42,016 nucleotides of DNA, from the NCBI GenBank assembly GCA_048941265.1, contig JBHLNT010000020.1, forward strand, positions 1 to 42,016. The letters are read 5' to 3'. Position numbers and translations under genes: made by a program. The notes under the pieces are model-generated. The model saw only the letters and a program-made list of their open reading frames with translations, was not told the origin of the DNA and did not search any database. The stretch comes from Promethearchaeota archaeon. Lineage in GTDB: Archaea; Asgardarchaeota; Lokiarchaeia; Sigyniarchaeales; SOKP01. Positions 2,959 through 38,316 of this stretch are shown in pieces (the stretch's first letter is position 1; every line of letters begins with the position of its first letter).

Positions 2959-3020
2959 CCTTCATTAAATATTTGCTTAATGTATATTCATTAGCAATAA
3001 TATTAATTTCCAATGAATAA

Positions 3021-22007: not shown

Positions 22008-23414
22008 TTAATGGCAGAGATCTCTCATAATCTCAGCGGTCACCTTTATAAGTTCGAGGGGGCCCATTCGTGAAATGTGAAATTTTACCCCTCGTCTTTT
22101 AATTAGTCTTGTAACTCCTGATCGGGCTCTTTTAAAGGTCATTGTTTCTTTGTAAGCCTTGGCTAAATAATAAAGCAAGTCTTCGGATGATAAATATGGA
22201 TATTTGATAACAGGAATCGACAAGTTAAAATCACGCCAATCTTTGGAAATTAACAGGTTTTCTTTCATCATTTGTTCCATCAGTTTTGTTCCAGGAAGAG
22301 GAGTTAGCAAAGAAAACGAAGCGATATCTATGTCCAGATTTTTAGCGATATCGACGAGAGATTCTAGATCCTTTTTTGTATCTTCGAGGTCTGCACCTAT
22401 AATGATATTTCCCTGGATTATAAAACCGTAATCGTGTAGTATCTTCATTGCGGATTTAATTTCTTGGAATTTAAGACGTTTATTGAGTTTTTTCAAAATC
22501 CGATCGGAAAAGCTTTCCAATCCCAGAAAAAGGTAGACAAATCCAGCATCTGCCATCTTTTTGAAAACATCGGGATGATGGACAACCATATCAACACGAG
22601 CTTGCGCCATGAAATATTTTCTAATTCCGGCTTGAAGGATGGAATGGCATAAATCTACAACGAAATTCTGATCGACTACAAAATTATCGTCAATGATGAA
22701 AATATGACTGGCTCGATTACGTATCTCCTTCGAGTATATCTCTTCCATGACATGCTCAATTCTACGTTTACGATATGTATGTCTATAAAAATGATGGATG
22801 CAGCAAAAATTGCAAGAATATGGACAACCACGAGTGGTTTCAATGCATTCAACAGAAAATCCAAAGTATTTATACGTTTTTTGTGCTGCTGCTGACCGAA
22901 GGCAACGATCAGGAAAACGAATATGCTTTAAATCCATTAATTCGCGGTCTGGATTGTGAATCTGCTTTTGATTCCGCTTGTACGATAAACCGGGTATCCC
23001 AGTAGGATTATTGTTTTGGATCAACTCTCGAAAGGTCAATTCTCCCTCACCTCTGATTACAATATCAACAGAGGGATAATTAAGCGTGTCGTTCGGTACC
23101 AGCGTAGGGTGCCACCCACCAAGAATGGTTTGAGAGCCATGCTTCTTAGCTATACCCGCGATCCTTTGAGCAATATTAATTTGAGCTGTAAAATTGCAAC
23201 TAATCCCTGTGTAGTGTGGTTGAAATTCTTCAATTGTTTTTTCAATTGCCCCAAAATTTACAGTTTTTATTCGATTGTCGAGGATACGGACATCAGCTAT
23301 ATCCTTAATATAGGCTGCTATATATTCCAATCCTAATGGGGAAAACATAAGGCTATCCTGAGGTCCATGATTGTAGAACTCTGGATATCTTGGACATATA
23401 AGTAAAACCCGCAA
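22008..23414 (-). CDS. Cobalamin-binding radical SAM protein (class B)
   Basis: PLGLEYIAA, GGWHPT, RGEGE, TRGCPYSCNFC, IDDNF, LGLES, LTPLPGT. Confidence 0.9.
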   Translation of the reverse strand: MRVLLICPRYPEFYNHGPQDSLMFSPLGLEYIAAYIKDIADVRILDNRIKTVNFGAIEKTIEEFQPHYTGISCNFTAQINIAQRIAGIAKKHGSQTILGGWHPTLVPNDTLNYPSVDIVIRGEGELTFRELIQNNNPTGIPGLSYKRNQKQIHNPDRELMDLKHIRFPDRCLRSAAAQKTYKYFGFSVECIETTRGCPYSCNFCCIHHFYRHTYRKRRIEHVMEEIYSKEIRNRASHIFIIDDNFVVDQNFVVDLCHSILQAGIRKYFMAQARVDMVVHHPDVFKKMADAGFVYLFLGLESFSDRILKKLNKRLKFQEIKSAMKILHDYGFIIQGNIIIGADLEDTKKDLESLVDIAKNLDIDIASFSLLTPLPGTKLMEQMMKENLLISKDWRDFNLSIPVIKYPYLSSEDLLYYLAKAYKETMTFKRARSGVTRLIKRRGVKFHISRMGPLELIKVTAEIMRDLCH

Positions 23415-23691: not shown

Positions 23692-24486
23692 ATGGATAAA
23701 TGTAGCAAACTTAATAAATTGAAAATTATTTTGATTTTGATCTTTATTACATCATTTTTCTTAGTTTCATTAATATATGTGTTTTTAAGTGATATTCCCG
23801 TTTTAATTTCTTTATTAGATAAATATTTCTCCTCTGGAAAATCATTTTTTATTCCTTTTATACCCCCTATTAACGTTTTAAACTTTTTACCGGAAAAATA
23901 TCGAATAATCAGGTTAACCATTGGTCAGCTTATTGATATTTATATTATTTCCAATCTAATTGCTTATATCGATTCCAGTTTTTACCATTATCTTAAAAAT
24001 ATACGCCTGAATAGTGAGTCTTTAACTTTAACTTTAATTGACAATGACTCTTCTAAAGACGATAATGACTTCCGAATTCTACCTCAAAATCCCGGAATTA
24101 TCATTGGATCAGAGGATCAGTCAAAAAAAAAAATGAATTTTTCACATCTCGTATTTGGAAAAAAGAGGCAATATAATTTTAAGAATTATTTGCGTAAATG
24201 GATGGATAAAATAATTATTATAAAAAATAAAAAATTCAAAATTTTGTCTTTTAACCTTTATTACTTTTTGCGGGGTTTTTATAATTATTCTCTTTTTAAA
24301 GTACTTTCGTTTTTGCGTTTGAAAGATCATTATTCCCCTACCGAAATAAATTTTTCAGATACTTTATACCTTTTTTTCCAAGAAGAGGGGAATAACATGA
24401 AAAAAATATATCTATCCTTTGATTTTAAAAAGAAATTTAGAGTCAAACTAAAGGATATTAAAATTCTAAATAATTTCGAAAAATAG
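23692..24486 (+). CDS. Hypothetical protein with N-terminal TM/signal anchor
   Basis: 264-aa ORF in very AT-rich DNA ending 4 nt before the next gene; no family recognised. Confidence 0.55.
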   Translation: MDKCSKLNKLKIILILIFITSFFLVSLIYVFLSDIPVLISLLDKYFSSGKSFFIPFIPPINVLNFLPEKYRIIRLTIGQLIDIYIISNLIAYIDSSFYHYLKNIRLNSESLTLTLIDNDSSKDDNDFRILPQNPGIIIGSEDQSKKKMNFSHLVFGKKRQYNFKNYLRKWMDKIIIIKNKKFKILSFNLYYFLRGFYNYSLFKVLSFLRLKDHYSPTEINFSDTLYLFFQEEGNNMKKIYLSFDFKKKFRVKLKDIKILNNFEK

Positions 24487-24490
24487 GAAT

Positions 24491-25870
24491 ATGGTGAATA
24501 ATATGGAATGGAGTAATGAAATAAATGAATTGTTTAATAAAATTATGGCACTGACACCTGAAATGTTTCGCAAGTCTATAAAACCAATGTGGCGAGAAGC
24601 TGCTGAAAAGACAGCAAGGCTTAGAAATTCCGGTTATATAAGTAAAGATGATTTACTATCTTCTTTATTTGAGATTACTCCCGAAGCATTCAAACCCACG
24701 GTGGCAAATGATTTAAACAAATTAGGAATTGATACACAACGATATATCAAATTGTCTGAAATTAGGAAAAATTATACTCGTACTTGGGAAGAAATTAGTG
24801 GGGCATTTTTACCAGGAGTATATCATTTCACTATATATCTCACAGATCGATGCAACCAAAATTGTCTTCATTGTGCTGCCGCAGTCATGGAGAAACGTCC
24901 AGAATTTCCCACGGAAACTTGGATTGAAATTATTGAGGATCTTGAACAAAGCTTACGAAAACGCGGGCGTCGAGGTTGTTATATATGGTTTGGAGGAGAA
25001 CCTACTATACGTAAAGATCTTAAAGATTTAATAAAATATTGCGGTGAAAAGGGCTATTACCAAGCACTAGCAACAAACGGAATTTTATTTAATGAAAAAC
25101 TGGCGAAATTATGCGCAGATTTTAAGATGAGCCATGTTTTTATTAGTTATGATAGTACAGATCCTAAACGGGCTGCGAAAATTAGAGGGCATCCAAAAGC
25201 ATACGAAGCAGCGGAAAAAGCCCTAAATTTGACTTCAAAATATGGGCTTTTTACTATTGCTAATGTAACTGCACAAAAAGAGAACTTCGATGAATTAGAA
25301 GACTTACAAAAATATTTTGATTCTAAGGGCGTAATTCCCTTTTACAGACCCCTGATCAAACAACGTTCAGCGGATTTAAATTGGGACGAAATCGGCTTAA
25401 GCATGGATGAATATCGACAATTCTATGATTTTAAATATAAAAATGCTATAGAAGCCATCAGAAAAGGAGAAGCATCGGCTCTTAATAAATTCTATACATG
25501 GGATATGGTGCCATTCATGGAGTGTCCTTTAAATGATGAGGAAAGGACTGCGATCGAATGGGGTACAGGATGTCAAGCCTGCCGCTCAATTTCCGGGATT
25601 GATACCAATGGAGATGTATTCCCTTGCGATTATCCCTCTGAATTAACTTTAGGCAACATTCTTGAGCAAAGTTGGGATGAGATTATGGAAACCGAAATGT
25701 TCAAAAAAATTCGAGATAGAAAAATAAAAGGGAAATGTTCAACTTGTCATCATCTTGATTTATGTGGTGGGGGTTGTAGGGTTCATGCTGAAAACGTAAC
25801 TGGAGATTTTTTAGCGGCTCTCCCGTTTTGTTGGCATAAAAACGATCATGAGCATGAAAATTGTAAATAA
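24491..25870 (+). CDS. Radical SAM/SPASM protein with N-terminal PCP_red/DUF2621-like module
   Basis: CNQNCLHC, GGEPT, ATNG; SPASM GCQAC...GDVFPC...CSTC....CGGGC...C. Confidence 0.9.
   Translation: MVNNMEWSNEINELFNKIMALTPEMFRKSIKPMWREAAEKTARLRNSGYISKDDLLSSLFEITPEAFKPTVANDLNKLGIDTQRYIKLSEIRKNYTRTWEEISGAFLPGVYHFTIYLTDRCNQNCLHCAAAVMEKRPEFPTETWIEIIEDLEQSLRKRGRRGCYIWFGGEPTIRKDLKDLIKYCGEKGYYQALATNGILFNEKLAKLCADFKMSHVFISYDSTDPKRAAKIRGHPKAYEAAEKALNLTSKYGLFTIANVTAQKENFDELEDLQKYFDSKGVIPFYRPLIKQRSADLNWDEIGLSMDEYRQFYDFKYKNAIEAIRKGEASALNKFYTWDMVPFMECPLNDEERTAIEWGTGCQACRSISGIDTNGDVFPCDYPSELTLGNILEQSWDEIMETEMFKKIRDRKIKGKCSTCHHLDLCGGGCRVHAENVTGDFLAALPFCWHKNDHEHENCK
24503..24745 (+). repeat. Shared ~80-aa protein module, copy 1 (N-terminus of rSAM/SPASM 1)
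   Basis: MEWSNEINELFNKIMALTPEMFRKSIKPMWREAAEKTARLRNSGYISKDDLLSSLFEITPEAFKPTVANDLNKLGIDTQRY. Confidence 0.85.
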
Positions 25871-25883
25871 TGGGTGGATCTTA

Positions 25884-26126
25884 ATGGAATGGGAACCAGA
25901 AACAGAAAAATTATTTGCAAGAATAGTAGAAAAAATGCCAGAAGGATTTCGTCCTTCCGTTAAACCCATGATTATAGAAGCTGCGGAAAAAAGATGCCTT
26001 GAAAGAAATGCTGCTTATATTAATGATGCGGATGTAGTCTTAGGGATTTTTGATATTATTCCTGAAGCATTTAAATCAATAATGGTTGAAGATTTGACAC
26101 ATTTGGGAATTGATGTTGAGCGTTAT
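25884..26126 (+). repeat. Shared module, copy 2 (N-terminus of rSAM/SPASM 2)
   Basis: MEWEPETEKLFARIVEKMPEGFRPSVKPMIIEAAEKRCLERNAAYINDADVVLGIFDIIPEAFKSIMVEDLTHLGIDVERY. Confidence 0.85.
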
Positions 26127-27299
26127 ATAGAACTTAAAGATATTAAGGATCGACTTAACGTTTCATGGCAAAAACTAGAAAGAGGATTTCATCCCGGAAA
26201 TATTCATTTTGCTATGTATCTCACGGACAAATGCAATCAAAGATGCGTTCATTGTGCTGCTGATGATCTTGTGCCAAGACCAGAATTATCCGCAGATCAA
26301 TGGTATCAGATCATAGAAAATGTTGAAACTGGATTAAGAAAACATGGAAGAAATGCATGTTTTGTTTGGTTCGGGGGAGAACCTACATTAAGAAAAGATA
26401 TTGATAAAATCATGAAATTTTGTAAAGAAAAAGACTATATTCATGCTCTTATTACGAACGGTGTGAAATTTGATGAGAAGTTCGCTAAGATGTGTAAGGA
26501 AAATAATATTAGCCATGTATTTGTAAGTTTTGACAGTGCAGATCCGAAGAAAAATGATTATATTCGCGGATTCTCTAATTCATTAGGCTATGCGAAAAAA
26601 GCTATAGATCTCTGTTTGAAATATGGAATTTTTGTATGTTCTTCAATCACAATCATGAAACAAAATATTGATGAATTGGATAAGCTTAAAGAATTATCAG
26701 AAAAATGGGGTTCCCAACCCTATTTTAGATGTGTAGTCAAACAAAATCGAGCTGCTGAATATTGGGGAGAAATTGGACTTAGTCAGGAAGAATATAAAAA
26801 AATGTACGATTTTAAGTATAAACATGCTATTGAAACGATAAGAAGAGGTAAAGCAGGTACTCTACCAGCATATGAAATTTATGATATGGTTCCCTTTATG
26901 GAACAACCCAAAGATGATAAAGAAATGGCGGCAATCGAATGGGGTGTTGGCTGCTTAGCTTGTAGAACAATGATGGGAATTGGAATAGATGGAACTATAT
27001 ATCCTGCGGGATATCCTACAAAGTTAACGCTTGGGAACGCATTAAAGGATAATTTTGAAGATGTTTTAAATTCTCAACTCTATAAAGATATTCGTGATAG
27101 AAAGAAGATTAAAGGAAAATGTTCATCTTGCCATCATCTTAAATATTGTGGCGGCGGATGCCGCGTAACGGCAGAATATATCACAGGGGATTTTTTCGGG
27201 TCATTTCCATTCTGCTGGCACGAAAATGATCATGAACATGAAACCGATATTTCTCAAATAAAAGAAACCAAATTAATTGAAAAGAAATCTAATTTATAA
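25884..27299 (+). CDS. Radical SAM/SPASM protein, paralog of the upstream gene, same N-terminal module
   Basis: CNQRCVHC, GGEPT, ITNG; GCLAC...CSSC....CGGGC...C. The likely start is ATG 25884 (GGTGG upstream; MEW aligns with paralogs). Confidence 0.9.
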   Translation: MEWEPETEKLFARIVEKMPEGFRPSVKPMIIEAAEKRCLERNAAYINDADVVLGIFDIIPEAFKSIMVEDLTHLGIDVERYIELKDIKDRLNVSWQKLERGFHPGNIHFAMYLTDKCNQRCVHCAADDLVPRPELSADQWYQIIENVETGLRKHGRNACFVWFGGEPTLRKDIDKIMKFCKEKDYIHALITNGVKFDEKFAKMCKENNISHVFVSFDSADPKKNDYIRGFSNSLGYAKKAIDLCLKYGIFVCSSITIMKQNIDELDKLKELSEKWGSQPYFRCVVKQNRAAEYWGEIGLSQEEYKKMYDFKYKHAIETIRRGKAGTLPAYEIYDMVPFMEQPKDDKEMAAIEWGVGCLACRTMMGIGIDGTIYPAGYPTKLTLGNALKDNFEDVLNSQLYKDIRDRKKIKGKCSSCHHLKYCGGGCRVTAEYITGDFFGSFPFCWHENDHEHETDISQIKETKLIEKKSNL

Positions 27300-27317
27300 A
27301 TTAAGAGAAAAGAGAGG

Positions 27318-28742
27318 GTGAGTGTTTTGCGTGTATTAATCTTTTCTGGCAGTCGGGAGATAGTCCATGTAATGGTCCCACCTATAGGAGAAGCATATCT
27401 CGCAGCTTATCTTATGAGTAAGGGACATGATGTAAAATTGCTCGATTTAACCCTCAGTAATGATATTAAAAGAGATATTCCGAAAGCTATTAATGATTTC
27501 AATCCTCATTTAATTGGAATTTCAATTAGGAATGTTGATTCAACAACCTACCCTGGTAATTTATTTTTTTATCTTCCTGTTAAAAATCTTATTCAATATA
27601 TCAAACAAATTGCAGAACCCGAAATTCCAATAATTTTAGGTGGAGCTGGTTTTTCAATTTTTTCAGAAGAAATCCTTAGAGATTTAAACCATCATATCGG
27701 AGTAGTAGGCGAAGGAGAATATGTTTTTGCTGAAATACTAAAAAATCTCAAATTAAATATTGATATAAGGAAGATTGAGAAGGGTATATGTTTTATTGAT
27801 GATAACGGGAACTACTATCAGAAACCACCCTGGCGGGTTGAGAATCTAGATGTCCTTCCTATCCCTATACGAGAATTGATTGATAATGATGCTTACCTTA
27901 TTGATCCATTGAATAAAACAGGAGCAACTTGGGGGAATATTCAAACGAAACGGGGTTGCCATATGAATTGTATCTATTGCAGTTATAGATATATTGAAGG
28001 GTCTACTGTTCGTTATAGATCTCCGGCGAACATCGCTGAGGAGCTTGATTTAATGGTAAATAATTATGGAATAAAAAATATTTTTATTGTAGACAGTGTT
28101 TTCAATTTAGATTATAACCATTTAAAAGAAACTTGTCAAGAGATTATAAATCATAAAATTGAATGTAATTGGGGGGCAAATTATGTTCCGAGTAAGGACT
28201 TCATTGAACTAATACCCCTCATGAAAGAAAGTGGTGCCACACATTTCGCAACAGGCATAGAATCATTTTCAGAGGAAATGTTAAGAAGTATGAAAAAAAG
28301 TCGAACCCCCGATGAGGCTATCCTGACTTCACAGAAATGTGTGGAATTAGAAATTGAACAATTGATTCATATTATAGTAGGTGGTCCTGGGGAAACCCTT
28401 GGAACAGTTCGAGCTTCTTTTAACCAGTTAGAAACTATAAAAAGTTTTAGGGGGAACTTATGGCAAGGAGATGGAGATGTGATAGTATTTATCGGAATGA
28501 GGATCTATCCTCATACTCCTCTCCAACTTATAGCTGAGCAAGAAGGCGTAATTCAAAAGGGTGAGAACCTGCTAAAACCTAAATTCTATCTCTCTCCAAA
28601 GATCAGAGAGATTGATCTGTTTCAAGTAGTAAGAGAATATGGTGAAAATAATCCTAGATGGATGATGCCTGGGCTTGGCTTTAATAATCCGGAAGGATTT
28701 GCTGAATTGAGTCAAATTCAATTTGCGAAATATCAGAATTAA
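27318..28742 (+). CDS. Cobalamin-binding radical SAM protein (resembles the lipid-biosynthesis-associated subgroup)
   Basis: PPIGEAYLAA, GISIRNVDS, LGGAGFSIF, GEGE, QTKRGCHMNCIYCSY, VDSVFN, GGPGET, GMRIYPHTPL, LLKPKFY. Confidence 0.88.
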   Translation: MSVLRVLIFSGSREIVHVMVPPIGEAYLAAYLMSKGHDVKLLDLTLSNDIKRDIPKAINDFNPHLIGISIRNVDSTTYPGNLFFYLPVKNLIQYIKQIAEPEIPIILGGAGFSIFSEEILRDLNHHIGVVGEGEYVFAEILKNLKLNIDIRKIEKGICFIDDNGNYYQKPPWRVENLDVLPIPIRELIDNDAYLIDPLNKTGATWGNIQTKRGCHMNCIYCSYRYIEGSTVRYRSPANIAEELDLMVNNYGIKNIFIVDSVFNLDYNHLKETCQEIINHKIECNWGANYVPSKDFIELIPLMKESGATHFATGIESFSEEMLRSMKKSRTPDEAILTSQKCVELEIEQLIHIIVGGPGETLGTVRASFNQLETIKSFRGNLWQGDGDVIVFIGMRIYPHTPLQLIAEQEGVIQKGENLLKPKFYLSPKIREIDLFQVVREYGENNPRWMMPGLGFNNPEGFAELSQIQFAKYQN

Positions 28743-28791
28743 AAAATTAAAAAAAATAATTAAAAAAATCTAAAAGAAGGTTAATATATAA

Positions 28792-29034
28792 ATGGAATGG
28801 CAACCAGAAGTTAAAAAGCTTTTTGATAAAGTGGTCTTAGGAGTTCCAGAAATGGTAAGACCCGCTGTAGAACCAGCTCTTTTTGAAGCTGCGGAAAAGA
28901 AATGTGTAGAACGAAATGGGAAAGCAGTAGCTGAGGTAGACCTCGTTGTTGCATTGTTTGAGGTAACCCCTCCAGCTTTCCAACCAGTAATGATTGAGGA
29001 TTTAAATACTTTTGGAGTTGATTATGATAGATAT
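28792..29034 (+). repeat. Shared module, copy 3 (N-terminus of the prenyltransferase)
   Basis: MEWQPEVKKLFDKVVLGVPEMVRPAVEPALFEAAEKKCVERNGKAVAEVDLVVALFEVTPPAFQPVMIEDLNTFGVDYDRY. Confidence 0.85.
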
Positions 29035-29964
29035 CTAGCTAAAGTAAAATCGGATTTCAAATGCAATACCGACCTTGTTCAAATGGTCAAAGATCTTTTT
29101 AAAATTGGTGAAATCGTTGGAGTGGAATGTAATGAAAACGCGATCTGGAAGGTGCTAAAAAATTATGAGAAATTTTTCGCGGGAGCTCCTGTATCAATTA
29201 GAACTACAACTAAACCTCTTGAAAATAGAGATGTTTCGGTAAGATATGTAGAATTTTTTGTCCCTCATAATCCCGATCCTTATATAACAGCTATCAATGA
29301 AGGATTAATTGAAAAGAATGGACATCCAATCCATAAAATGATACGAGAATCAATAGAGACCTTTCAGATCATGGGATATGGTGTTGATTTGGATGTGAGA
29401 AAAGGATTATCAAAGATCTGGCCTTTTGTGGTTCCAGTATCAATTGAATCAATCTTTATGATGAAGAATATTCCTCCAAGTCTCAAAAAATATGAAAATT
29501 ATTTCAAAAAACATAGTCTTAATGTTTTTAGTCTTTTTGCATTTGATTTCTTCCATAATACTACCAACATCTATTTCATGCTTAAACAACCGCCTAAAGC
29601 AAGTTATAAGAACTGTGCATCACTTATCGAAGAATTGGGATTTGAAATTCCATCTAAAGAAATAATGGAAGGTTGTCGTAAGGCAGCACACCTCAATTAT
29701 ACGTTTAGCTGGGATTCAAAGAATATTGAGCGTTTATGCTTTGGTATAGCTGTAGATGATTTTAGAGAGGTGCCAATTCATCTGCATCCAGTTATGAAGG
29801 ATTTTGTCGAAAAAACCCCGCTCCAAAGTGAGAAAAAGAAATTTATCTGGGGGGTGACATTTACGCCCAATGGAATTTATTATAAGATCGAAAACGATTA
29901 TAACGGAACTATGATAGATTTCTTGGGGATGGGTTGTAAAGCCGGATTGGATACATATAATTAA
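28792..29964 (+). CDS. ABBA-fold aromatic prenyltransferase (NphB/CloQ/PpzP-type, PTase_Orf2) with N-terminal PCP_red/DUF2621-like module
   Basis: DPYITAINEGLI...GHP, YGVDLDVRKGLSKIWPF, DFFHNTTNIYF, YTFSWDSKNIERLCF, YYKIENDY. These match the ordered NphB-family motifs (DPY...GL...GHP; G.F.K.(Y/W).F; DY....VNLYF; TL.W....I.RLCF; YYKL..Y). Confidence 0.88.
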   Translation: MEWQPEVKKLFDKVVLGVPEMVRPAVEPALFEAAEKKCVERNGKAVAEVDLVVALFEVTPPAFQPVMIEDLNTFGVDYDRYLAKVKSDFKCNTDLVQMVKDLFKIGEIVGVECNENAIWKVLKNYEKFFAGAPVSIRTTTKPLENRDVSVRYVEFFVPHNPDPYITAINEGLIEKNGHPIHKMIRESIETFQIMGYGVDLDVRKGLSKIWPFVVPVSIESIFMMKNIPPSLKKYENYFKKHSLNVFSLFAFDFFHNTTNIYFMLKQPPKASYKNCASLIEELGFEIPSKEIMEGCRKAAHLNYTFSWDSKNIERLCFGIAVDDFREVPIHLHPVMKDFVEKTPLQSEKKKFIWGVTFTPNGIYYKIENDYNGTMIDFLGMGCKAGLDTYN

Positions 29965-30013
29965 ATTTATTTTTTTTGGTTTCAAAAAAAATAGTACGAA
30001 GAATGGTTAAAGA

Positions 30014-31165
30014 ATGAAATTTATAATTGATGGAGATTATAATAGAGATTTAATTTCCTTTTTTGAAAGAGAAAAATTACCAGTTACACATATGATTGTT
30101 CACGTACCAGCCAATCCTATTGGTAATAGTTCAATTTTTTTACCAAAAATTCTTCCCACATTTGAGGAATTTGAAGATTATACCAAAATTATTCAAGATT
30201 ACGGCATAGTTCCGATTGCTGGCATCGATTCCACATGCCAAGGAAACTTTGAAGCTCATGCTAAACAAAATGATGCAATTAATAGCTTATTTAAAAAATT
30301 ATCAAATTTGGGATATAAAGACATCCTCGTGTCTTCTCCGAATAATATCGGGGTTATTACAGCTAAGTTCCCAAAGATGAAAATTTTTTTATCATATTCC
30401 CAATGTGTCACTTCTTTAAATCGAGGAAAGATCTTTTTCAATTTAGGTGCCGATTATATAATTATTCATCCTGATGTAGTTAGATACTTTCCCACCTTAA
30501 GAAATTTCATTAAATTAAAAAAAAAAGAATTTAAATTTCGAGATGTAGATTATATTTTACCTTTAAACCTTGGATGTAATTGGGGATGCATTCACTGGTA
30601 TCAGCACCATAATTTGCAAAGTCATAGAACTATAAATTCTCCACTTAGTTACAATCAAGAAAAGATTTCTGATATTGCAAATGCATTTGATTATCCATTA
30701 TTATATTGCTGGAAAAAACGCCTTGAAGATCCTTTAAACCTCCTCAAAGAAGGATGGGTTTCCCCCACTAACATCGAATTATATGAAAATTTAGGTTTTG
30801 AGAATTATTTATTATTTTCTAGTAGCTTTTCAAATGAAAAAATTATAGAAATTCTTCACTCATATATAGATAAAACACTCAAGACTAATTTCAATGAATA
30901 CTTGAATTTCCCTCAACCATACGGAGACTATTGGCCAGGTGATAAAATTAAAAAGTCATTAAATTTGCTTGACCCTAATGTTATTACAGAATTTTGTAGA
31001 ACCTTTCCTTATGAAAATCATTATCCTTTCGAGAAAGAAATGAACGAATACTGCAATATATACTTAAAAAACCTAGGAGATGGAAAAATAAAAGAAAGGG
31101 ATAAGATTATCGAATTAATCACTAAAAGAATGCATACAATTGAAAAGGGGGTTTTAGAGGAGTAA
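30014..31165 (+). CDS. Divergent U32-family (peptidase U32/Fe-S hydroxylase-like) protein
   Basis: V.SLNR..F..LG; LNLGCNWGC..WYQHH..QSH...YC...WVSP...YE.LG aligns with the two downstream U32 paralogs, but the GGGR and FKIxGR motifs are absent. Confidence 0.7.
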   Translation: MKFIIDGDYNRDLISFFEREKLPVTHMIVHVPANPIGNSSIFLPKILPTFEEFEDYTKIIQDYGIVPIAGIDSTCQGNFEAHAKQNDAINSLFKKLSNLGYKDILVSSPNNIGVITAKFPKMKIFLSYSQCVTSLNRGKIFFNLGADYIIIHPDVVRYFPTLRNFIKLKKKEFKFRDVDYILPLNLGCNWGCIHWYQHHNLQSHRTINSPLSYNQEKISDIANAFDYPLLYCWKKRLEDPLNLLKEGWVSPTNIELYENLGFENYLLFSSSFSNEKIIEILHSYIDKTLKTNFNEYLNFPQPYGDYWPGDKIKKSLNLLDPNVITEFCRTFPYENHYPFEKEMNEYCNIYLKNLGDGKIKERDKIIELITKRMHTIEKGVLEE

Positions 31166-31169
31166 TATT

Positions 31170-33221
31170 ATGCGTATCTCTCTGGCCTGTAATTGGAAAT
31201 TAGATTTATTAAACTATATAGAAAATGAATATTCTTTAAAACAAAATCTGCATGATTTATATGGTACGCGTGATTTCAGTTTCAGCGGTTCAGGACGCCC
31301 TTTTTTTTTGATGCCAAAGAAACAAGAAGAGGAGATTGAGTCCTACATACATAAAGTACACGAGTTAAATTTGCGTTTTACGTGGTTATGGAATGGAGGA
31401 TGTATAGGGTATTTTAAATTCAATTCAAATGAGCAAACAAAAGCCCTTAAAGAATTAGATTGGTTAGATGATATGAATGTAGAATTTCTTACTGTATCTG
31501 ATCCTTATTTGGCTGAGTTTGCTAAAACCTATCATCCTAAGTTAAAGTTAAAAGTATCTGTAATTTCTGAGGTCAATTCTCTAACACGTGCTTTAGAATG
31601 GGAAGAAATAATTGGTAAGGATGGTGTCTTAACTTTATCCATAATGCTAAATAGGAATTTCCCTCTTCTCAAGGAAATTCGAAACGCTGTAAAATGCGAT
31701 ATTGAATTATTGACAAATGATTGCTGTTTATACGAATGTCCATTTCGATTTTTCCATTACACAGAATGCTCTCACGCTAGCCAGATAAATGATATATTAG
31801 AAGGTTATTATAACGATTGGGCTACAATGGCCTGTCAAAATCAAAAATGTTTCAATCCCGAACAAATTATCATGTGCCGATGGATTCAACCGTCAGATCT
31901 TGATAGTTATATCGACATCGGAATTGATTATTTTAAAATTTCTGGAAGAAGATATGGAACGAATTGGTTATATAGAACCCTAAAGGCATATAGTAGTAAA
32001 TCATATAAGGAGAATCTTGGGGAAATCTTCAATGGTTATTCCTTTGTCTCAGATCCTTTAGAATTAGCAGGAGCTCAATTCTCTGAATTTGCTGCTAAGC
32101 AAGAAAAAATGGGAGGAATTCCCGATGACCAGGGCATTATGTTAAGCGTGCCGGATTTTAAAGCGATATTAGAAGAAAAAAAATTACATAATTTCATTCA
32201 AAATTTTCCATATCAAGGAGCAAGGTGTAATGAAAATTGTGGGGTTACGTGCTTTTATTGTTATGAAATAGCTGAAAAAGCATATTCAATCCCATCAAAA
32301 TCTAACGCCGAATCCTATAAAAATTATATGAAATATCTTTATGATTATCTCAATGCTGGCGAGATGTTTTTGCCTAAAGAAAAAAGAAAGCTCAAAAGCC
32401 CTGTTAAAGAAATAGAATCAAATTCTTATACTGGAATTCCCTGGGAAGATGATGCCCGAGAATTTTTCCAAGAAGCTTTGATTTTAGTTCCTGAAAACAT
32501 GCAAAATGCAGCCAAACAAGGAATTGGATTTACTGCGGAAAGAACTGCAGAAAAACAAGGATTAAATTATGTTAATAAAGATTTATTAATCTCAATTTTA
32601 ATTCAATTAGTACCTCAATCATTCAAACACGATATTGTTGATTACTTAATAGAAAAAAATATCGAACTAACTCGGTTTATGAATGAGGATGATATAAAAT
32701 ATGCTAAATCTCTGCCGTATGGTACCGAAATCATGGCAAAAAAATCACAAGAAATGGATTTAGCAATTAACAATTCAAATATAATAAAAAATAGAACAGA
32801 AATCAATAAAGAAAAAGAGGTGAAAGTGTTAATGAATAGTAAAGAAGAATGGGAGGCGTATTTAACCCGCTTCATGAAAGCTTATAATGAGCTGCCCGAT
32901 TTGGCAAAGTTATTGGATCCAATAGCACCGTTAGTATTCCAATACATAATAGCGGATAGACCAGAGATGAATTACTGGCAATTTATTGAAAAAGACAAAA
33001 TGAATTGGGGAATGGGGGAATACTCTGGTCCTAATGCTCCGAAAATTATTCATAAAACGGATTTTGATACAATTAAAAAGGTTAATTCGGGTGAGTCTGA
33101 TCCTATCCAAGCTACGATGTCTGGAACTTATGTTGTGGAAGGTGATGTAACAAAGCTCATGGCTTGCGCTCCCTTGTTGCCGCTCAATGCAAAAGCCCAT
33201 CTTAAGGCAATTGAAAAATAA
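31170..33221 (+). CDS. U32-family Fe-S protein fused to a PCP_red/DUF2621-like module and a C-terminal SCP2 lipid-binding domain
   Basis: GSGRP, NDCCLYECPFR..HY..CSH, WIQP.DL..Y, FKISGR, CNENCGVTCFYC; module at aa ~423-503; SCP2-like VFQY...DFDTIKKVNSGESDPIQATMSGTYVVEGDVTKLM. Confidence 0.85.
   Translation: MRISLACNWKLDLLNYIENEYSLKQNLHDLYGTRDFSFSGSGRPFFLMPKKQEEEIESYIHKVHELNLRFTWLWNGGCIGYFKFNSNEQTKALKELDWLDDMNVEFLTVSDPYLAEFAKTYHPKLKLKVSVISEVNSLTRALEWEEIIGKDGVLTLSIMLNRNFPLLKEIRNAVKCDIELLTNDCCLYECPFRFFHYTECSHASQINDILEGYYNDWATMACQNQKCFNPEQIIMCRWIQPSDLDSYIDIGIDYFKISGRRYGTNWLYRTLKAYSSKSYKENLGEIFNGYSFVSDPLELAGAQFSEFAAKQEKMGGIPDDQGIMLSVPDFKAILEEKKLHNFIQNFPYQGARCNENCGVTCFYCYEIAEKAYSIPSKSNAESYKNYMKYLYDYLNAGEMFLPKEKRKLKSPVKEIESNSYTGIPWEDDAREFFQEALILVPENMQNAAKQGIGFTAERTAEKQGLNYVNKDLLISILIQLVPQSFKHDIVDYLIEKNIELTRFMNEDDIKYAKSLPYGTEIMAKKSQEMDLAINNSNIIKNRTEINKEKEVKVLMNSKEEWEAYLTRFMKAYNELPDLAKLLDPIAPLVFQYIIADRPEMNYWQFIEKDKMNWGMGEYSGPNAPKIIHKTDFDTIKKVNSGESDPIQATMSGTYVVEGDVTKLMACAPLLPLNAKAHLKAIEK
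32436..32678 (+). repeat. Shared module, copy 4 (between the U32 and SCP2 domains)
   Basis: IPWEDDAREFFQEALILVPENMQNAAKQGIGFTAERTAEKQGLNYVNKDLLISILIQLVPQSFKHDIVDYLIEKNIELTRF. Confidence 0.75.
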
Positions 33222-33257
33222 TGAAATCAAAATGAGAATAATTAAAAATAGTAAAAG

Positions 33258-34673
33258 GTGGAAAAAATTCAATTTCATGTAGCAACTAATTGGGACTTTA
33301 ACCTTATTGATGAGCTTGCTAAATATCCCGTGGCAAGTTTGTATGGTGTCGCAGATCACACTCTTGTAGGTGGAGGCCGTCCCTCATTCTTATTACAAAA
33401 AATATCAGAAGAACAAATTGCAGAATACATTAGAAAGGTTCATCAGAAAAAAATGCAATTTTCTTATTTATTGAATGCTCCCTGCATGAATAATATGGAA
33501 TACAATTCAGATTATCATAAAGAGCTCCTCAAATATATTCAATGGATCAGTGATATTGGAACCGATAATGTAATAGTTACTATTCCATTTCTAATACAGC
33601 TTATTAAGGAACAATTTCCTAAATTAAAAATACGCATATCGACCATCGCACATGTTAACAGTGTAAATCGGGCAAAATTTTATGAAATGCTAGGGGCACA
33701 TGAGATAACTCCTGATGTAATGATAAACCGTGATTTCCAGACATTGGAAAGAATTCAAAAAGCTTCTAAATGTAAGATTGTGTTACTTTTAACTGATGGG
33801 TGCTTATATCAATGTCCTTTTAGATATTATCACTATAATATATTAGGACATGCTTCTCAAACCCACCAACAATCCGAGCGTAATTATATCGATACATGCA
33901 TCTTAAATTGCAGTGTTATCAAATTTTCCGATCCTAAGGAAGTTATAAAAGCACGTTGGATTCGTCCTGAAGATCTATCCCACTATGAAGCTATTGGAAT
34001 TGAAGACTTTAAAATAGCAGGACGACGCATGTCGACGCAATGGATTGTCAGGGCAGTGAAAGCATTTGCCTCACGTGAATATCAAGGAAACTTAGTAGAT
34101 ATTATTCAAGGGTTCTCAATGTCATTTGGAGGTCTGGAACAAAAGGATCCGAACGTTAAAATAGGCCAAACACTTGGAAAAGAATCTAAATCTAAATTAA
34201 TCATAGACAATACGAAACTTGATGGCTTTATAGATTTTTTTAAAAAACAAAATTGTATTGCTATGTGTAATGAGTGTTCTTATTGTGATGAGTGGGCAAA
34301 AAAAGCAGTATTTCTGGATAAAGAAGAAGCTCCAAGATACGTTGAATCTTTAAAAAATTATCTTAAAGATATTATTACAAGCCGAGAATTCGGAGTAGTT
34401 TCAGAAAAAACTAAGGATGAGAAAAAAATAGGTTTAATTTGGGACCCTGAGACCGAAAGTATCTTTAACGAGTTAATCAATTTATCACCCCCTCAATTTC
34501 AATCTATGGCGAGAATGGCAATATCATCATTAGCAGAAGAAAAAGCGAAAAAAAGAGCATCAGGAGAAATTAATAATCAAGACATTGTTCAAGCATTCAT
34601 AGAAGGGACTCCAGGTCCGTTTCAAGCTGATATGAGAGAAGGTCTCAAAAAATTTGGACTTTTAAATGATTAA
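33258..34673 (+). CDS. U32-family Fe-S protein with C-terminal PCP_red/DUF2621-like module
   Basis: GGGRPS, LLNAPC, INRDF, DGCLYQCPFR..HY...GH, WIRPEDL..Y, FKIAGR, CIAMCNECSYC; module from aa ~393. Confidence 0.88.
   Translation: MEKIQFHVATNWDFNLIDELAKYPVASLYGVADHTLVGGGRPSFLLQKISEEQIAEYIRKVHQKKMQFSYLLNAPCMNNMEYNSDYHKELLKYIQWISDIGTDNVIVTIPFLIQLIKEQFPKLKIRISTIAHVNSVNRAKFYEMLGAHEITPDVMINRDFQTLERIQKASKCKIVLLLTDGCLYQCPFRYYHYNILGHASQTHQQSERNYIDTCILNCSVIKFSDPKEVIKARWIRPEDLSHYEAIGIEDFKIAGRRMSTQWIVRAVKAFASREYQGNLVDIIQGFSMSFGGLEQKDPNVKIGQTLGKESKSKLIIDNTKLDGFIDFFKKQNCIAMCNECSYCDEWAKKAVFLDKEEAPRYVESLKNYLKDIITSREFGVVSEKTKDEKKIGLIWDPETESIFNELINLSPPQFQSMARMAISSLAEEKAKKRASGEINNQDIVQAFIEGTPGPFQADMREGLKKFGLLND
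34434..34664 (+). repeat. Shared module, copy 5 (C-terminus of the last U32 protein)
   Basis: LIWDPETESIFNELINLSPPQFQSMARMAISSLAEEKAKKRASGEINNQDIVQAFIEGTPGPFQADMREGLKKFGLL. Confidence 0.8.
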
Positions 34674-34700
34674 TTTGTTTTTTTATTTATTTTTTATTTA
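34674..34700 (+). terminator. T-rich tract, putative archaeal-type intrinsic terminator of the operon
   Basis: TTTGTTTTTTTATTTATTTTTTATTTA directly after the stop codon, between convergent genes. Confidence 0.4.
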
Positions 34701-36587
34701 TTTATTATTTGAGAAGGAAATCGTCCAAGTTTTAAAAAAATTTGATATCGTTTCACATGCTGGTTTACGTGTACCATCAAGTCGTACTAAACCGAATCCC
34801 TTTTCACCACGATCTCTCCATTTATGGATAATTAATCCGCTAATAAAGATATCCTTTTCCAATAGGTTAAATACTTCTTTAAATGCATGCGATTGTGCCT
34901 TTTCATCATAAGTAAATTGTTCGAAGTCCTCTTGAAATTGAATAGGAATTGGTCCTGCTCTTATGGTATCGGTAACTGTTTGGAAACCCAATTCTGATAC
35001 GATGACAGGTTTTTTAAAGGTTTTTAGATATTGAATATTTTGACGGAATAGATGGGAGGCTCTAACAGAGGGACTGCCTTTAGGTGATACGATTCTTAAC
35101 CCTGGTAAGACTTCGATATACTTTAAAAATAAATCGCTGAAATAGAGGTTACAGCATATAATATCAAAGTGCTTCCAAGGGACATTTCGAAGTTCCCATG
35201 AGCCGGCAGCATATGAAACCATTCCGTCATAGTGGTTCCTAACTTTTTTACATAAATTTTCCAAATATGGGGTCAGTTTAGGTTGCTTTCTTCCGAGTTT
35301 CCCTATCTTGGCAAGAGGGGTAGCACCCAAACCCGGGACCATCTCTAAGCTAGATGGTGCAAATTGCGCAAAAAATTCATCATTCAACCTTTCCAAATGA
35401 CCAGATTTATCATCACTCAGTTCCAGAGTGAGTTCATTTCCGATACAAAAAATATCAATCCCAGCATTTTGGGCCCTTTGGGCATGATCCAAGCAAAAAT
35501 CTTCAAATTCATCATAAGTGAAAGATTTATCTAGGTGAGGTTTATCAAGCCCCCCAGGATAAATATATCTTGGGGAGAGAATAACGTTCAATCCAAGTTC
35601 TTTCGCTACTGATGCAAACTCATATACTCTAGTTTCAGGTCGCATAGCATCAAGTCGGATTGTATTAATATTCATTGAATGAATAACTTGCTGCAATTCG
35701 TCTTTAAATTCTTGAAGTTCCCTCGGAAACCATCCCATAGATTCATGCTGGAAATGTATACCTTTATAAAGGCCATAGAGACCCGCAAATGCATCTATTC
35801 GTTTTAATCCCTTGTTTATAAAGAGATCCATAAATCCTGGTACCATTTGAAAAGGTCTAGTCACCCAACCACTCAGTTCAAGAACAGTAGTTTTTTGTTG
35901 ACTTACAGCTTTTAATATTTCATCATGATTATGGATATCATCAAGATCAGGACCGACTAAATTGAAAAACCTACCAATATGATGGATCGTATGTGCATCA
36001 TCTCCTCCCAAAATGAACATTTGTGGTCTTAATTTAACAAGGGCAGAACACATATTGTTAAGGAAGGGGGGAAGATCCGCATGAAAAAATTCAATTCCAT
36101 CAAAGTTGAATTTAGAGATTTTTGATATCTTCAGTCCACCGAATGGTCTGAAAATTCCTTCAATGGGGTGGAATGGATGGGCAATGACAGCTAACCCTCC
36201 TTGCTCATGAATATCCTTAATAACATTTTTGATTGAGGGTTTCTCTTCTCCTTCAATAAGAATTTCAGTTTGTAAACCATAAGCGAGAACGCAACCATAA
36301 CTGCTGTCAATTTCCTCAGAACATAAATAGCCACAATCTGGGTATTTATCCTTAATATAGGTTTTTGCATACTCCGCCACTCGCATATTATTATGGTCGG
36401 TTAGAGCTATGAGATTTACTCCAAATTTAACAAGAGTATCAATAACCTCACGAAAATCAACCCCATCTGAAAAATTAGTGTGATTATGAGAGGAAAAAAT
36501 AATGTAACCTTCATTTTTTAATTGATTTAGCTCTTTTTGGCTAACTCTTCTAACACTAATTCCAGAATTAGGGTAAAATGTCGCCAT
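34698..36587 (-). CDS. PHP phosphoesterase domain fused to a clan GH-A-like TIM-barrel glycoside hydrolase
   Basis: HNHTNFSDG, ALTDHN, EE, AHPF, GGDDAH (PHP); C-terminal INTIRL, IGNEL (acid/base), VSYAA..WE, DIICCNLY, KPVIVSELGF (nucleophile), FGLV..DGTRKPA. Confidence 0.8.
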   Translation of the reverse strand: MATFYPNSGISVRRVSQKELNQLKNEGYIIFSSHNHTNFSDGVDFREVIDTLVKFGVNLIALTDHNNMRVAEYAKTYIKDKYPDCGYLCSEEIDSSYGCVLAYGLQTEILIEGEEKPSIKNVIKDIHEQGGLAVIAHPFHPIEGIFRPFGGLKISKISKFNFDGIEFFHADLPPFLNNMCSALVKLRPQMFILGGDDAHTIHHIGRFFNLVGPDLDDIHNHDEILKAVSQQKTTVLELSGWVTRPFQMVPGFMDLFINKGLKRIDAFAGLYGLYKGIHFQHESMGWFPRELQEFKDELQQVIHSMNINTIRLDAMRPETRVYEFASVAKELGLNVILSPRYIYPGGLDKPHLDKSFTYDEFEDFCLDHAQRAQNAGIDIFCIGNELTLELSDDKSGHLERLNDEFFAQFAPSSLEMVPGLGATPLAKIGKLGRKQPKLTPYLENLCKKVRNHYDGMVSYAAGSWELRNVPWKHFDIICCNLYFSDLFLKYIEVLPGLRIVSPKGSPSVRASHLFRQNIQYLKTFKKPVIVSELGFQTVTDTIRAGPIPIQFQEDFEQFTYDEKAQSHAFKEVFNLLEKDIFISGLIIHKWRDRGEKGFGLVRLDGTRKPACETISNFFKTWTISFSNNK

Positions 36588-37776: not shown

Positions 37777-38316
37777 ATGTCAGAAGAAAAGGTACATGAA
37801 TACATTTTAAAGCTAGTTTTATTAGGTGATCCCGCAGTTGGAAAGACATCGTTAATCAATCAATATGTTGATCATACATTTAAAACAGATTATCAACCAA
37901 CATTAGGTGCTAATATCATAGCTAAAGAAATTAAAATGAATCAAATTAAAACTACCACTAAATTGATTATTTGGGATATTGCTGGTCAAAAAACTTATGA
38001 TTTATCACGTAAATTGTTTTTTCAAGGATGCTCTGGAGCCCTTTTTATATATGATATTACAAGAGCATCAACGTTTGAAAATATAAAAGATAAATGGTTG
38101 CAAGATTTCCAAAAATTCGGAAAAACTAAAGCGGCGTTCATTTTAATTGGAAACAAGACAGATTTAACGGAGATAAGATCCGTTAAAAAAGAAACTGGAG
38201 AAAAACTAGCAGATGATATAAATGCAATTGATTTTATTGAAACGAGTGCTAAATATGGAGAAAATGTTGAATTGGCTTTTAAAAAATTAATTAATCAGGT
38301 TATATCAGATGAATAA
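37777..38316 (+). CDS. Rab-like small GTPase
   Basis: G1 GDPAVGKTS, G2 YQPTLG, G3 WDIAGQ, G4 GNKTD, G5 ETSAK; no C-terminal Cys. Confidence 0.93.
   Translation: MSEEKVHEYILKLVLLGDPAVGKTSLINQYVDHTFKTDYQPTLGANIIAKEIKMNQIKTTTKLIIWDIAGQKTYDLSRKLFFQGCSGALFIYDITRASTFENIKDKWLQDFQKFGKTKAAFILIGNKTDLTEIRSVKKETGEKLADDINAIDFIETSAKYGENVELAFKKLINQVISDE

Follow-up and report, generated by a model that had tools for sequence, protein, structure and literature searches.

An Asgard archaeal operon combining a predicted ABBA prenyltransferase with U32, SCP2 and radical-SAM proteins: candidate oxygen-independent tailoring of a lipophilic small molecule

Gene content of the operon

The contig JBHLNT010000020.1 from the Promethearchaeota archaeon assembly GCA_048941265.1 was analysed over positions 1 to 42,016, and this whole stretch of 42,016 nt is referred to as the window. 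It contains an operon of eight co-oriented open reading frames (ORFs) on the plus strand at 23692-34673. The encoded proteins include radical S-adenosylmethionine (radical-SAM) enzymes, a predicted aromatic prenyltransferase of the ABBA type and three U32-family proteins, one of which is fused to an SCP2 domain. There is good support for the view that these proteins function together in a pathway that needs no oxygen and has a lipophilic small molecule as its substrate. The operon genes are labelled g0 to g7 in 5' to 3' direction. The prefixes G, L and P denote related genomes (G000 is the source metagenome-assembled genome, MAG), fetched loci and database proteins, respectively.

23692-24486, plus strand: g0, 264 amino acids (aa), no known family, a single N-terminal hydrophobic segment (approximately residues 6-43, by hydropathy)
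24491-25870, plus strand: g1, shared module (residues 5-92), radical SAM and SPASM
25848-27299, plus strand: g2, shared module, radical SAM and SPASM; paralogue of g1
27318-28742, plus strand: g3, class-B (B12-binding) radical SAM, without the shared module
28792-29964, plus strand: g4, shared module (residues 1-88) and predicted ABBA/PTase_Orf2 barrel (residues 95-378)
30014-31165, plus strand: g5, divergent U32-like protein, without the shared module
31170-33221, plus strand: g6, U32, Cys-rich motif (353-364), shared module (423-510) and SCP2 (555-683)
33258-34673, plus strand: g7, U32, Cys-rich motif (333-343) and C-terminal shared module (393-471)

These genes are predicted to form one operon, with intergenic gaps of 4, -23, 18, 49, 49, 4 and 36 nt from g0 to g7. 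A first-pass annotation, made from the sequence alone, had described seven tightly spaced co-oriented genes. All seven are confirmed, with gaps that range from -23 to 49 nt, but the eighth ORF, g0, was overlooked. g1 and g2 probably overlap only because the longest ORF was chosen: alignments of g2 orthologues begin at residues 8-13, and going by these, g2 probably starts at 25884 and not at 25848. The 3' boundary of the operon is set by a convergent gene (34698-36587, minus strand), in which a PHP/CehA-McbA-type metallohydrolase domain is fused to a GH113-like glycoside hydrolase. It is syntenic in G001 only (79% identity).

For g0, no Pfam or NCBIfam match was found and the protein atlas gave no usable match (pLDDT of the atlas model, i.e. 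the predicted local distance difference test score, 0.40). Its orthologues, with 31-41% identity, occupy the same position in L014, L015, L016, L018, L047 and L053, and a partial one is found in L050. On the basis of its hydropathy, g0 is classed as a membrane-anchored protein of unassigned family.

The gene families named in the first-pass annotation (two radical-SAM/SPASM enzymes, one B12-radical-SAM enzyme, a prenyltransferase, three U32 proteins and SCP2) are all present according to Pfam and NCBIfam, with g5 assigned by BLASTP paralogy and SCP2 by its aligned copies. The prenyltransferase g4 matches PTase_Orf2 (PF11468) with 177.2 bits (cut-off 22) over profile positions 3-283 of 287, and with 178 bits in the genome search. 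The PT barrel is defined by ten antiparallel strands arranged in five alpha-beta-beta-alpha units, and in the AlphaFold model of g4 (pLDDT 93.3) residues 134-369 span 10 strands. The top Foldseek match is AmbP3 (5y7c; E 8.6e-28, template modelling (TM) score 0.92, root-mean-square deviation 2.2 over 290 columns, 29% identity), and AmbP3, FamD1 and AmbP1 (TM ≤0.92) are followed by EpzP, NphB and CloQ. A profile search against PDB sequences agrees with this ranking (AmbP1, E 7.5e-58). Absence of the prenyl-diphosphate motif (N/D)DxxD is a criterion of the ABBA family, and a regular-expression scan did not find this motif in g4. The protein models as a PT barrel of the ABBA/PTase_Orf2 type, in line with the fold that had been suggested for the product of the gene at 28792.

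Like g4, the cyanobacterial indole prenyltransferases AmbP1, AmbP3 and FamD1 of hapalindole/ambiguine synthesis belong to the PTase_Orf2 family, share the PT-barrel fold predicted for g4 and have no (N/D)DxxD motif. In contrast to them, g4 has an additional N-terminal helical module of 88 aa and is encoded among anaerobic iron-sulfur (Fe-S) enzymes, not in an isonitrile, phenazine or polyketide cluster. A total of 125 relatives of g4 were found, and all of those with a named source come from Asgard MAGs or sediment metagenomes. With 43-75% identity among relatives, g4 is the least conserved component of the operon. ABBA prenyltransferases require an aromatic acceptor.

Peptidase_U32 (PF01136; cut-off 22.4) is matched by g6 (35.8 bits) and g7 (48.2 bits), over only positions 6-87 and 2-64 of the 233 in the profile. 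g5 has no Pfam or NCBIfam match and was recognized as a U32 paralogue by BLASTP (25% identity to g7, E 1e-23); g6 and g7 share 33% identity (E 2e-88). The residues C76, C182, C186, C218, H192 and H198 are invariant in 24 of 24 aligned sequences from the three U32 groups, and a joint profile of these groups finds the solved U32 protein 5d88 (E 2.5e-15). The additional Cys-rich motif of g6 and g7 does not occur in g5. In NCBIfam, neither g5 nor g6 matches the UbiU, UbiV or TrhP equivalogs. Orthologues of g5 adjoin g6 orthologues in seven loci (L015, L016, L017, L019, L022, L023 and L024) and a g6 gene cut by the contig end in L021, so that g5 is always paired with a g6-type gene in the fetched loci.

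The SCP2 (PF02036) scores of g6 range over 16.8-21.0 bits, and the values of 20.3-21.0 bits lie just under the cut-off of 21.3. The family is matched at E ≤0.01 by 11 of 11 aligned copies, comprising the domain of g6 and 10 free-standing orthologues (best E 2.8e-7). In the 10 loci without the g6 fusion, a free-standing SCP2 protein of 128-137 aa is encoded between the prenyltransferase and U32 genes, and the SCP2 part of g6 is 67-86% identical to these proteins. The idea that SCP2 is an unusually conserved hub was dropped, as this identity resembles that of g1, g2, g3 and g7.

Both g1 and g2 exceed the Pfam cut-offs for Radical_SAM and SPASM (75.9 and 42.7 bits in g1, 80.6 and 32.8 bits in g2). 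The two proteins are about 50% identical, and their tblastn cross-matches range from 49 to 54%. g1 contains the motif CNQNCLHC (CxxxCxxC) and the complete SPASM set of seven Cys. g2 contains CNQRCVHC and Cx2Cx5Cx3C and lacks the final Cys of the first SPASM element; Ala is found in place of this Cys within residues 369-395. One auxiliary cluster of g2 may accordingly be predicted to have an open or altered ligand. The top NCBIfam matches of g1 and g2 are AhbD, AhbC and NirJ, at about a quarter of the cut-offs (AhbD for g1, 136 bits, cut-off 500). The solved structures nearest to g1 are PqqE (E 2.3e-12) and GDGT-MAS (E 1.8e-9).

The third radical-SAM enzyme, g3, has a B12-binding domain (63.6 bits), a Radical_SAM domain (78.5 bits) and the motif CHMNCIYC. 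TIGR04072 ('lipid biosynthesis B12/rSAM'; cut-off 360) is its best NCBIfam match with 261.7 bits, ahead of BzaD with 198.3 bits (cut-off 450). Among solved structures, TsrM comes closest (E 1.4e-17). BzaD and TsrM are aromatic-ring C-methylases. g3 shares with BzaD, TsrM and TIGR04072 the combination of B12-binding and radical-SAM domains and the CxxxCxxC motif, but all of its matches are below the equivalog cut-offs. The same applies to every NCBIfam equivalog score of g1 and g2.

A helical module shared by five enzymes

Five of the seven enzymes carry a common module of about 85 aa. It is N-terminal in g1, g2 and g4, located between U32 and SCP2 in g6 and C-terminal in g7. Invariant positions of the module alignment are W3, F11, P19, A34, E35, P60, F63 and L71. 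In the genome search, the N-terminus of g4 matches g2 (E 6e-23), g1 (E 2e-17) and g7 (E 5e-5). A model based on an alignment of 50 sequences predicts five helices (pLDDT 93.7) and contains no winged-helix or beta-strand element.

The five copies of the window score 15.9-25.3 bits against DUF2621 (PF11084; g6 21.2 bits), all below the gathering score of 27.7, which is exceeded by two relatives of the module (P0162 with 29.2 and P0209 with 28.5 bits). The best Foldseek matches are not significant: histone-fold proteins (E 0.19) and the PCP_red structure 2kru (E 0.68, TM 0.56, 61 columns). Among PDB sequences, the module profile reached E 0.05 at best. When a profile of the five copies was searched against 1.84 billion proteins, 259 representatives reached E ≤0.001. 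Free-standing proteins of 77-105 aa make up many of these, and the free forms are annotated as 'DUF2621 family protein' or hypothetical. The protein atlas places the module next to free-standing bacterial DUF2621/PCP_red clusters (score 0.95). The module resembles both of these small helical domains, DUF2621 and PCP_red (PF08369), with a weak likeness in fold (2kru), and differs from them by its fusion to radical-SAM/SPASM, prenyltransferase and U32 enzymes.

Ten of the matches are multi-domain proteins. The fusion partners are SCP2 in three, PTase_Orf2 in three (with the module at either end) and U32 in two, one of which also has SCP2; LuxC with radical-SAM/SPASM, a repeat protein and no other recognized domain account for one each. 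In G060 (C3:116113-117324), a relative at class level, and in the metagenome protein P0128, the module is located C-terminal to the prenyltransferase barrel. Because of these two cases, the module behaves as a movable unit, which indicates domain shuffling; it is taken to be non-catalytic. The module marks g1, g2, g4, g6 and g7 as one set and probably recruits them to a common partner.

A bacterial metagenome contig (L044:8793-16208, plus strand) shows the module in a different context. Here, the gene order is LuxE, LuxC, a LuxC/module/radical-SAM-SPASM fusion (ORF of 1027 aa, P0161), LuxE and FMN reductase, and no prenyltransferase, U32 or SCP2 gene is found at this locus. The module is therefore also used in other pathways, in this case in an acyl-activating setting.

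Conservation and genomic context in Asgard archaea

For the synteny analysis, the proteins of the window were compared with 14 fetched loci by tblastn, and the loci were scanned for conserved intergenic ORFs. The related loci are archaeal in 12 of 12 cases (9 Promethearchaeota, 1 Hermodarchaeota, 1 Hodarchaeota and 1 uncultured archaeon). Three layouts are found. The full layout consists of two radical-SAM genes, the B12-radical-SAM gene, the prenyltransferase gene, the divergent U32 gene and the U32/module/SCP2 gene, with or without a further U32/module gene, and is present in the window and in G009, G024, G025, G023, G011 and G017. In the reduced layout, two radical-SAM genes, in part accompanied by the B12-radical-SAM gene, precede the genes for the prenyltransferase, the free SCP2 protein and the U32/module protein (G001, G010, G029, G006, G060 and five further loci). 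The third is a second, paralogous layout in G024 and G023.

Co-occurrence was examined in 61 related genomes with four markers, and their distribution is nested. The U32 clade is present in 23 genomes, SCP2 in 18, the prenyltransferase barrel in 14 and radical-SAM/SPASM in 14. For the barrel, 6 of 20 raw genome matches were set aside as they covered the module only. All 14 prenyltransferase genomes also have SCP2 and U32, and 12 of the 14 have the SPASM enzymes as well. None of the four markers was found in 38 of the 61 genomes. Since the U32 clade is missing from 14 of 24 high-quality genomes, this patchiness does not merely reflect incomplete assemblies. The genomes are kin, and the counts are for this reason descriptive and were not subjected to a statistical test. 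The syntenic recurrence and nested co-occurrence of the genes in related genomes indicate that the set is more than a chance assembly. Of the outcomes that the first-pass annotation had listed as refuting its reading, the two open to bioinformatics, a lack of co-occurrence in related genomes and a g4 protein without PT barrel, were not observed.

With these queries, none of the four markers matched in G044, G045, G050 or G055, which are closed genomes from the same order. Because these genomes are without the cluster, lipidomics of the corresponding strains would miss the product.

Two of the cluster-bearing genomes contain additional related genes. The source genome has a partial second copy on contig C80 (3.3 kb), where a g6-like U32/module/SCP2 gene (L052:8-2035, plus strand; 73.5% identity) is followed by a g7-like U32 gene (2202-3335, plus strand; 75% identity); this could be a paralogous cluster or stem from a second strain in the bin. 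On contig C15 of G024, two extra radical-SAM genes with 24% identity to g1 lie between the B12 gene and the prenyltransferase gene (L016:9563-12098, plus strand). Two further ORFs of 529 and 503 aa on the same contig (16579-18511, plus strand) have SCP2-like ends with 48-50% identity.

The following genes are located upstream of the operon.

13285-14592, minus strand: LuxE-like adenylate-forming enzyme (Pfam LuxE 82.2 bits; weak NCBIfam match to PaaK/LuxE); membership in the cluster uncertain
17860-19179, minus strand: glycosyltransferase of family GT2 (Pfam; weak NCBIfam match to PgaC/NodC)
19299-20237, minus strand: CDP-alcohol phosphatidyltransferase (Pfam; weak NCBIfam match to archaetidylinositol-phosphate synthase)
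20449-21909, plus strand: B12-radical-SAM enzyme, TIGR04190-like (269 bits, cut-off 500); recurrent neighbour
22008-23414, minus strand: B12-radical-SAM enzyme, HpnR/BchE-like (HpnR 166.8 and BchE 163.1 bits, both under the cut-offs); divergently oriented

Orthologues of the gene at 20449-21909 adjoin the cluster in L014, L015, L019, L020, L025, L026 and L053 (61-76% identity), and those of the gene at 22008-23414 are found in L014 and L016 (58-70% identity). The genes for the CDP-alcohol phosphatidyltransferase and the GT2 enzyme lie beside the cluster, on either side, in 10 of 25 distinct fetched loci in addition to the window. A LuxE-like gene is a neighbour in 7 of the 25 and in the window, and in G038 and G039, which are more distant, such a gene is paired with the U32/module gene and directly adjoins it. 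The first-pass annotation had passed over these lipid-enzyme and LuxE-like neighbours and the flanking B12-radical-SAM genes, as well as g0 and the module on five of the seven enzymes.

The window contains six B12-radical-SAM genes in total (1492-2958, 3021-4520, 16281-17762 and 22008-23414 on the minus strand; 20449-21909 and 27318-28742 on the plus strand) and a further radical-SAM gene at 10597-11628 (minus strand). The B12-radical-SAM genes are interspersed with genes for glycosyltransferases, sulfotransferases, polysaccharide deacetylases and alpha/beta hydrolases. Further downstream, two genes for Ras-family small GTPases flank a PCC-domain gene (37777-38316, 38515-38943 and 38959-39519, all on the plus strand). 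Eukaryote-like genes such as small GTPases are usual in Asgard genomes.

To survey the use of quinones, seven Pfam families were searched, NuoH and NrfD in the 61 genomes and the others in five good cluster-bearing genomes; control genomes were positive in every search. NuoH was detected in 3 of the 61 relatives, none of which bears the cluster, and was not found in the source genome. None of the 61 gave a match to NrfD, and none of the 5 cluster-bearing genomes gave one to NarI/HdrE, cytochrome b or MqnA/D. Ni_hydr_CYTB had 0 of 5 matches over the cut-off and a single sub-threshold match in G024 (23.7 bits, cut-off 30.1). The sole match above the cut-off in cluster-bearing genomes is a divergent cytochrome-bd subunit-I-like ORF of 538 aa in the source genome (PF01654, 73.9 bits; G000 contig C233 of 7.3 kb, L040:5201-6817, minus strand). 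The family was not found in the four other cluster-bearing genomes searched.

Contig C233 also encodes a 486-aa Usp + PCP_red protein (L040:2968-4428, minus strand; 48.3 bits, above the cut-off), two genes away from the cytochrome-bd-like ORF. Next come genes for an ABC transporter pair and a rubrerythrin-like protein. The GC content of 0.26-0.32 is similar to that of the window.

Proposed pathway and alternative explanations

The operon is best read as one of a group of related Asgard gene clusters with patchy inheritance, whose enzymes would modify a water-insoluble small molecule in the absence of oxygen, with a prenylated aromatic compound as the most likely product in this case; we give this reading a probability of roughly 55%. 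From the families, predicted folds, motifs, synteny and nested co-occurrence, we infer chemical steps and a possible order for them; the identity of the acceptor, the length of the prenyl chain and the module's role are likewise treated as conditional. The soluble ABBA prenyltransferase g4 would attach a prenyl chain to an aromatic acceptor. Greasy intermediates would then be held in the SCP2 pocket of g6, similar to ubiquinone intermediates in UbiJ or UbiT. The U32 proteins, as putative Fe-S enzymes, would hydroxylate the ring, probably with oxygen from prephenate, with g5 and g6 as a UbiV/UbiU-like pair and g7 acting alone. C-methylation would be carried out by the B12-radical-SAM enzyme g3, perhaps together with its flanking paralogues. 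The SPASM enzymes g1 and g2 would perform further radical steps, for example an oxidative decarboxylation of the AhbD/NirJ type or the formation of a C-C bond.

The hydroxylation step is modelled on the UbiT-UbiU-UbiV system. According to PMC6747719, UbiU and UbiV form a heterodimer, ligate one 4Fe-4S cluster apiece via four conserved Cys and need the SCP2 protein UbiT, and in Zymomonas a ubiT-ubiU fusion is found with ubiV downstream. PMC10990095 names prephenate as the oxygen donor of the UbiU/UbiV pathway and describes the characterized U32 systems as hydroxylating aromatic or heteroaromatic rings. Prephenate is supplied by chorismate mutase, and this enzyme was detected in 4 of 5 cluster-bearing genomes, among them the source genome. 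In both systems, U32-family genes with four conserved Cys lie side by side and are accompanied by an SCP2 protein, and a U32-SCP2 fusion is encoded beside a second U32 gene here as in Zymomonas (PMC6747719). By analogy, g5 and g6, which are separated by 4 nt and always occur together, look like a UbiV/UbiU-like pair. The comparison drawn in the first-pass annotation is fair at the family level, given the four invariant Cys and the SCP2 fusion beside a partner U32 protein, but the U32 proteins of the operon are far from UbiU and TrhP. They further differ by another Cys spacing and, in g6 and g7, by the additional Cys-rich motif and the helical module. The ubiquinone route uses the membrane protein UbiA, whereas the operon has a soluble ABBA barrel in its place; the cluster is without counterparts of UbiD/X, UbiE or UbiG and is archaeal, whereas UbiT-UbiU-UbiV is proteobacterial. 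By a similar analogy, SCP2 could serve several enzymes at once, as in the UbiJ-UbiK metabolon, in which, according to PMC6747719, several enzymes draw on hydrophobic intermediates bound to an SCP2 protein. That metabolon has a small helical accessory element, while the helical element here is fused to the enzymes themselves, and no homology to UbiK is claimed.

A number of observations weigh against a prenylated aromatic product made by such a route. In the U32 paralogues, the Cys are spaced as C-x105-C-x3-C-x31-C, which departs from the CX6CX15CX3/4C that PMC6747719 gives for most U32 families. Equivalog scores are all far under their cut-offs (AhbD 136 of 500, TIGR04072 262 of 360 and, in g7 only, TrhP 32.7 of 534 and UbiU 17.5 of 440). 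The module finds 0 solved structures at E ≤0.001 in Foldseek, and no gene for the synthesis of an aromatic acceptor is present in the operon itself. Polar-lipid and glycan enzymes are what recurs in its neighbourhood. Furthermore, two contiguous loci have no prenyltransferase gene: in G005, which is 98% complete, the order is g0, SCP2, U32/module and B12-radical-SAM, and in G002 it is B12-radical-SAM, g0, radical-SAM/SPASM, SCP2 and U32/module. As these loci are contiguous, the substrate of the core need not come from g4, nor be a prenylated aromatic. The existence of intact loci with SCP2, U32 and B12-radical-SAM genes and no prenyltransferase makes these three look like the family core, with the prenyltransferase and SPASM enzymes as an add-on. 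Given these loci, the prenyltransferase is neither an obligatory entry point of the pathway nor the founding enzyme of the cluster family.

The same loci fit a different explanation, in which the region is an island for membrane-lipid tailoring. Here, the core of SCP2, U32, the B12-radical-SAM enzymes and g0 would hydroxylate and methylate an isoprenoid membrane lipid or the head group of such a lipid, radical coupling of the Tes type would fall to the SPASM enzymes, the CDP-alcohol phosphatidyltransferase and GT2 enzymes would finish the molecule and the prenyltransferase would be a lineage-specific extra. The wider distribution of U32 and SCP2 compared to the prenyltransferase is in line with this, as are the top NCBIfam family of g3 (a 'lipid biosynthesis' B12/rSAM), the match of g1 to the tetraether synthase GDGT-MAS (E 1.8e-9), the six B12-radical-SAM genes of the window and the CDP-alcohol phosphatidyltransferase genes upstream or downstream of the cluster in 10 of 25 distinct loci plus the window. 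In G005, the CDP-alcohol transferase and GT2 genes directly adjoin the g0-SCP2-U32-B12 genes. However, most of the loci with a CDP-alcohol transferase come from one genome family, so that common descent may account for some of this proximity, and the NCBIfam matches of this enzyme and of GT2 are weak. The aromatic acceptor required by ABBA prenyltransferases and the action of characterized U32 systems on aromatic or heteroaromatic rings (PMC10990095) also speak against lipid tailoring, which we regard as plausible though rather unlikely. An idea that joins both readings is more speculative and is considered doubtful: a new class of membrane compounds made without oxygen, in which an aromatic head, possibly derived from indole or phenol, would be prenylated by the soluble ABBA enzyme, hydroxylated by prephenate-dependent U32 proteins and C-methylated by cobalamin radical-SAM enzymes while bound to SCP2, and finally given a phospho- or glyco-head by the adjacent CDP-alcohol phosphatidyltransferase and GT2, with the module as a new kind of docking tag that gathers enzymes of three unrelated folds in a soluble metabolon.

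The first-pass annotation had proposed a membrane redox carrier or a meroterpenoid. A quinone- or phenazine-like electron carrier for energy metabolism, made by a UbiA-independent route, would suit the toolkit of prenylation, U32 hydroxylation, C-methylation and SCP2 carrier. The cluster would also be non-redundant, given that the MqnA/D menaquinone route was not found in 5 of 5 cluster-bearing genomes, and the cytochrome-bd-like ORF of the source genome could be a user of such a carrier. Yet this ORF was not found in the four other cluster-bearing genomes, no other quinone-reactive family among the seven searched (NuoH, NrfD, NarI/HdrE, cytochrome b, Ni_hydr_CYTB) was found above its cut-off in cluster-bearing genomes, and the operon is without an O-methyltransferase or decarboxylase. 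A redox-carrier role of the product is possible, but it finds no support in the genomic context because quinone-using families were not found, bar the one cytochrome-bd-like ORF, and this explanation is judged unlikely. Less probable again is a peptide-derived product, i.e. a ribosomally synthesized and post-translationally modified peptide (RiPP) or a cofactor similar to pyrroloquinoline quinone (PQQ) or mycofactocin, with the module as a leader-recognition-like element on each tailoring enzyme and a precursor modified by the SPASM, B12-radical-SAM and prenyltransferase enzymes. g1 and g2 match PqqE, MftC and many peptide maturases (E 1e-20 to 1e-30), and PqqE is the nearest solved structure to g1. 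The presence of the same small non-catalytic domain on unrelated folds follows the logic of RiPP recognition elements, and free-standing copies of the module exist. Against this, when intergenic ORFs with a minimum length of 28 aa were scanned in the window and 19 fetched loci, no conserved precursor-peptide gene was found in or beside the cluster, and SCP2 is the only conserved family among these ORFs; moreover, a protein of the lipid-binding SCP2 type is a core component and the module is predicted to be all-helical. Modification of a tetrapyrrole, in which the AhbD/AhbC/NirJ-like and BchE-like enzymes would act on a porphyrinoid bound by a PCP_red-like module, is the most improbable of the explanations considered. 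The PCP_red domain occurs in the B subunit of protochlorophyllide reductase, the module is weakly similar to 2kru and is grouped with DUF2621/PCP_red clusters in the atlas, and AhbD, AhbC and NirJ are the top NCBIfam matches of g1 and g2. These NCBIfam scores, however, reach about a quarter of the cut-offs, the structural match to 2kru is not significant, the window holds no gene of the tetrapyrrole core pathway, and we know of no prenyltransferase, U32 or SCP2 protein in tetrapyrrole pathways.

Among titles and abstracts, no description of the cluster was found, including in work on ABBA prenyltransferases in archaea, and no literature was found on DUF2621; the first-pass annotation's statement that no such pathway has been described is upheld to this extent. 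What is added here is the nested distribution, the prenyltransferase-less loci, the free-standing SCP2 proteins, the lipid enzymes encoded nearby and the negative outcome of the survey of quinone-using families. To our knowledge, U32 hydroxylases have only three known functions, none of which is established in archaea. If the prenylated-aromatic reading is true, the known range of anaerobic hydroxylation of the prephenate type would grow by one domain of life and one product. Soluble ABBA prenyltransferases are characterized only in bacteria and fungi according to PMC7253389, and the conserved archaeal operon unites such a predicted enzyme and U32 enzymes with a putative SCP2 carrier and cobalamin radical-SAM enzymes. 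The module, which occurs on three unrelated enzyme folds, could be tested as a candidate tag for pathway assembly, and the nested distribution indicates which genes to express together. As the membranes and energy metabolism of Asgard archaea bear on models for the origin of eukaryotes, an unrecognized lipid-soluble metabolite in these organisms would be worth finding.

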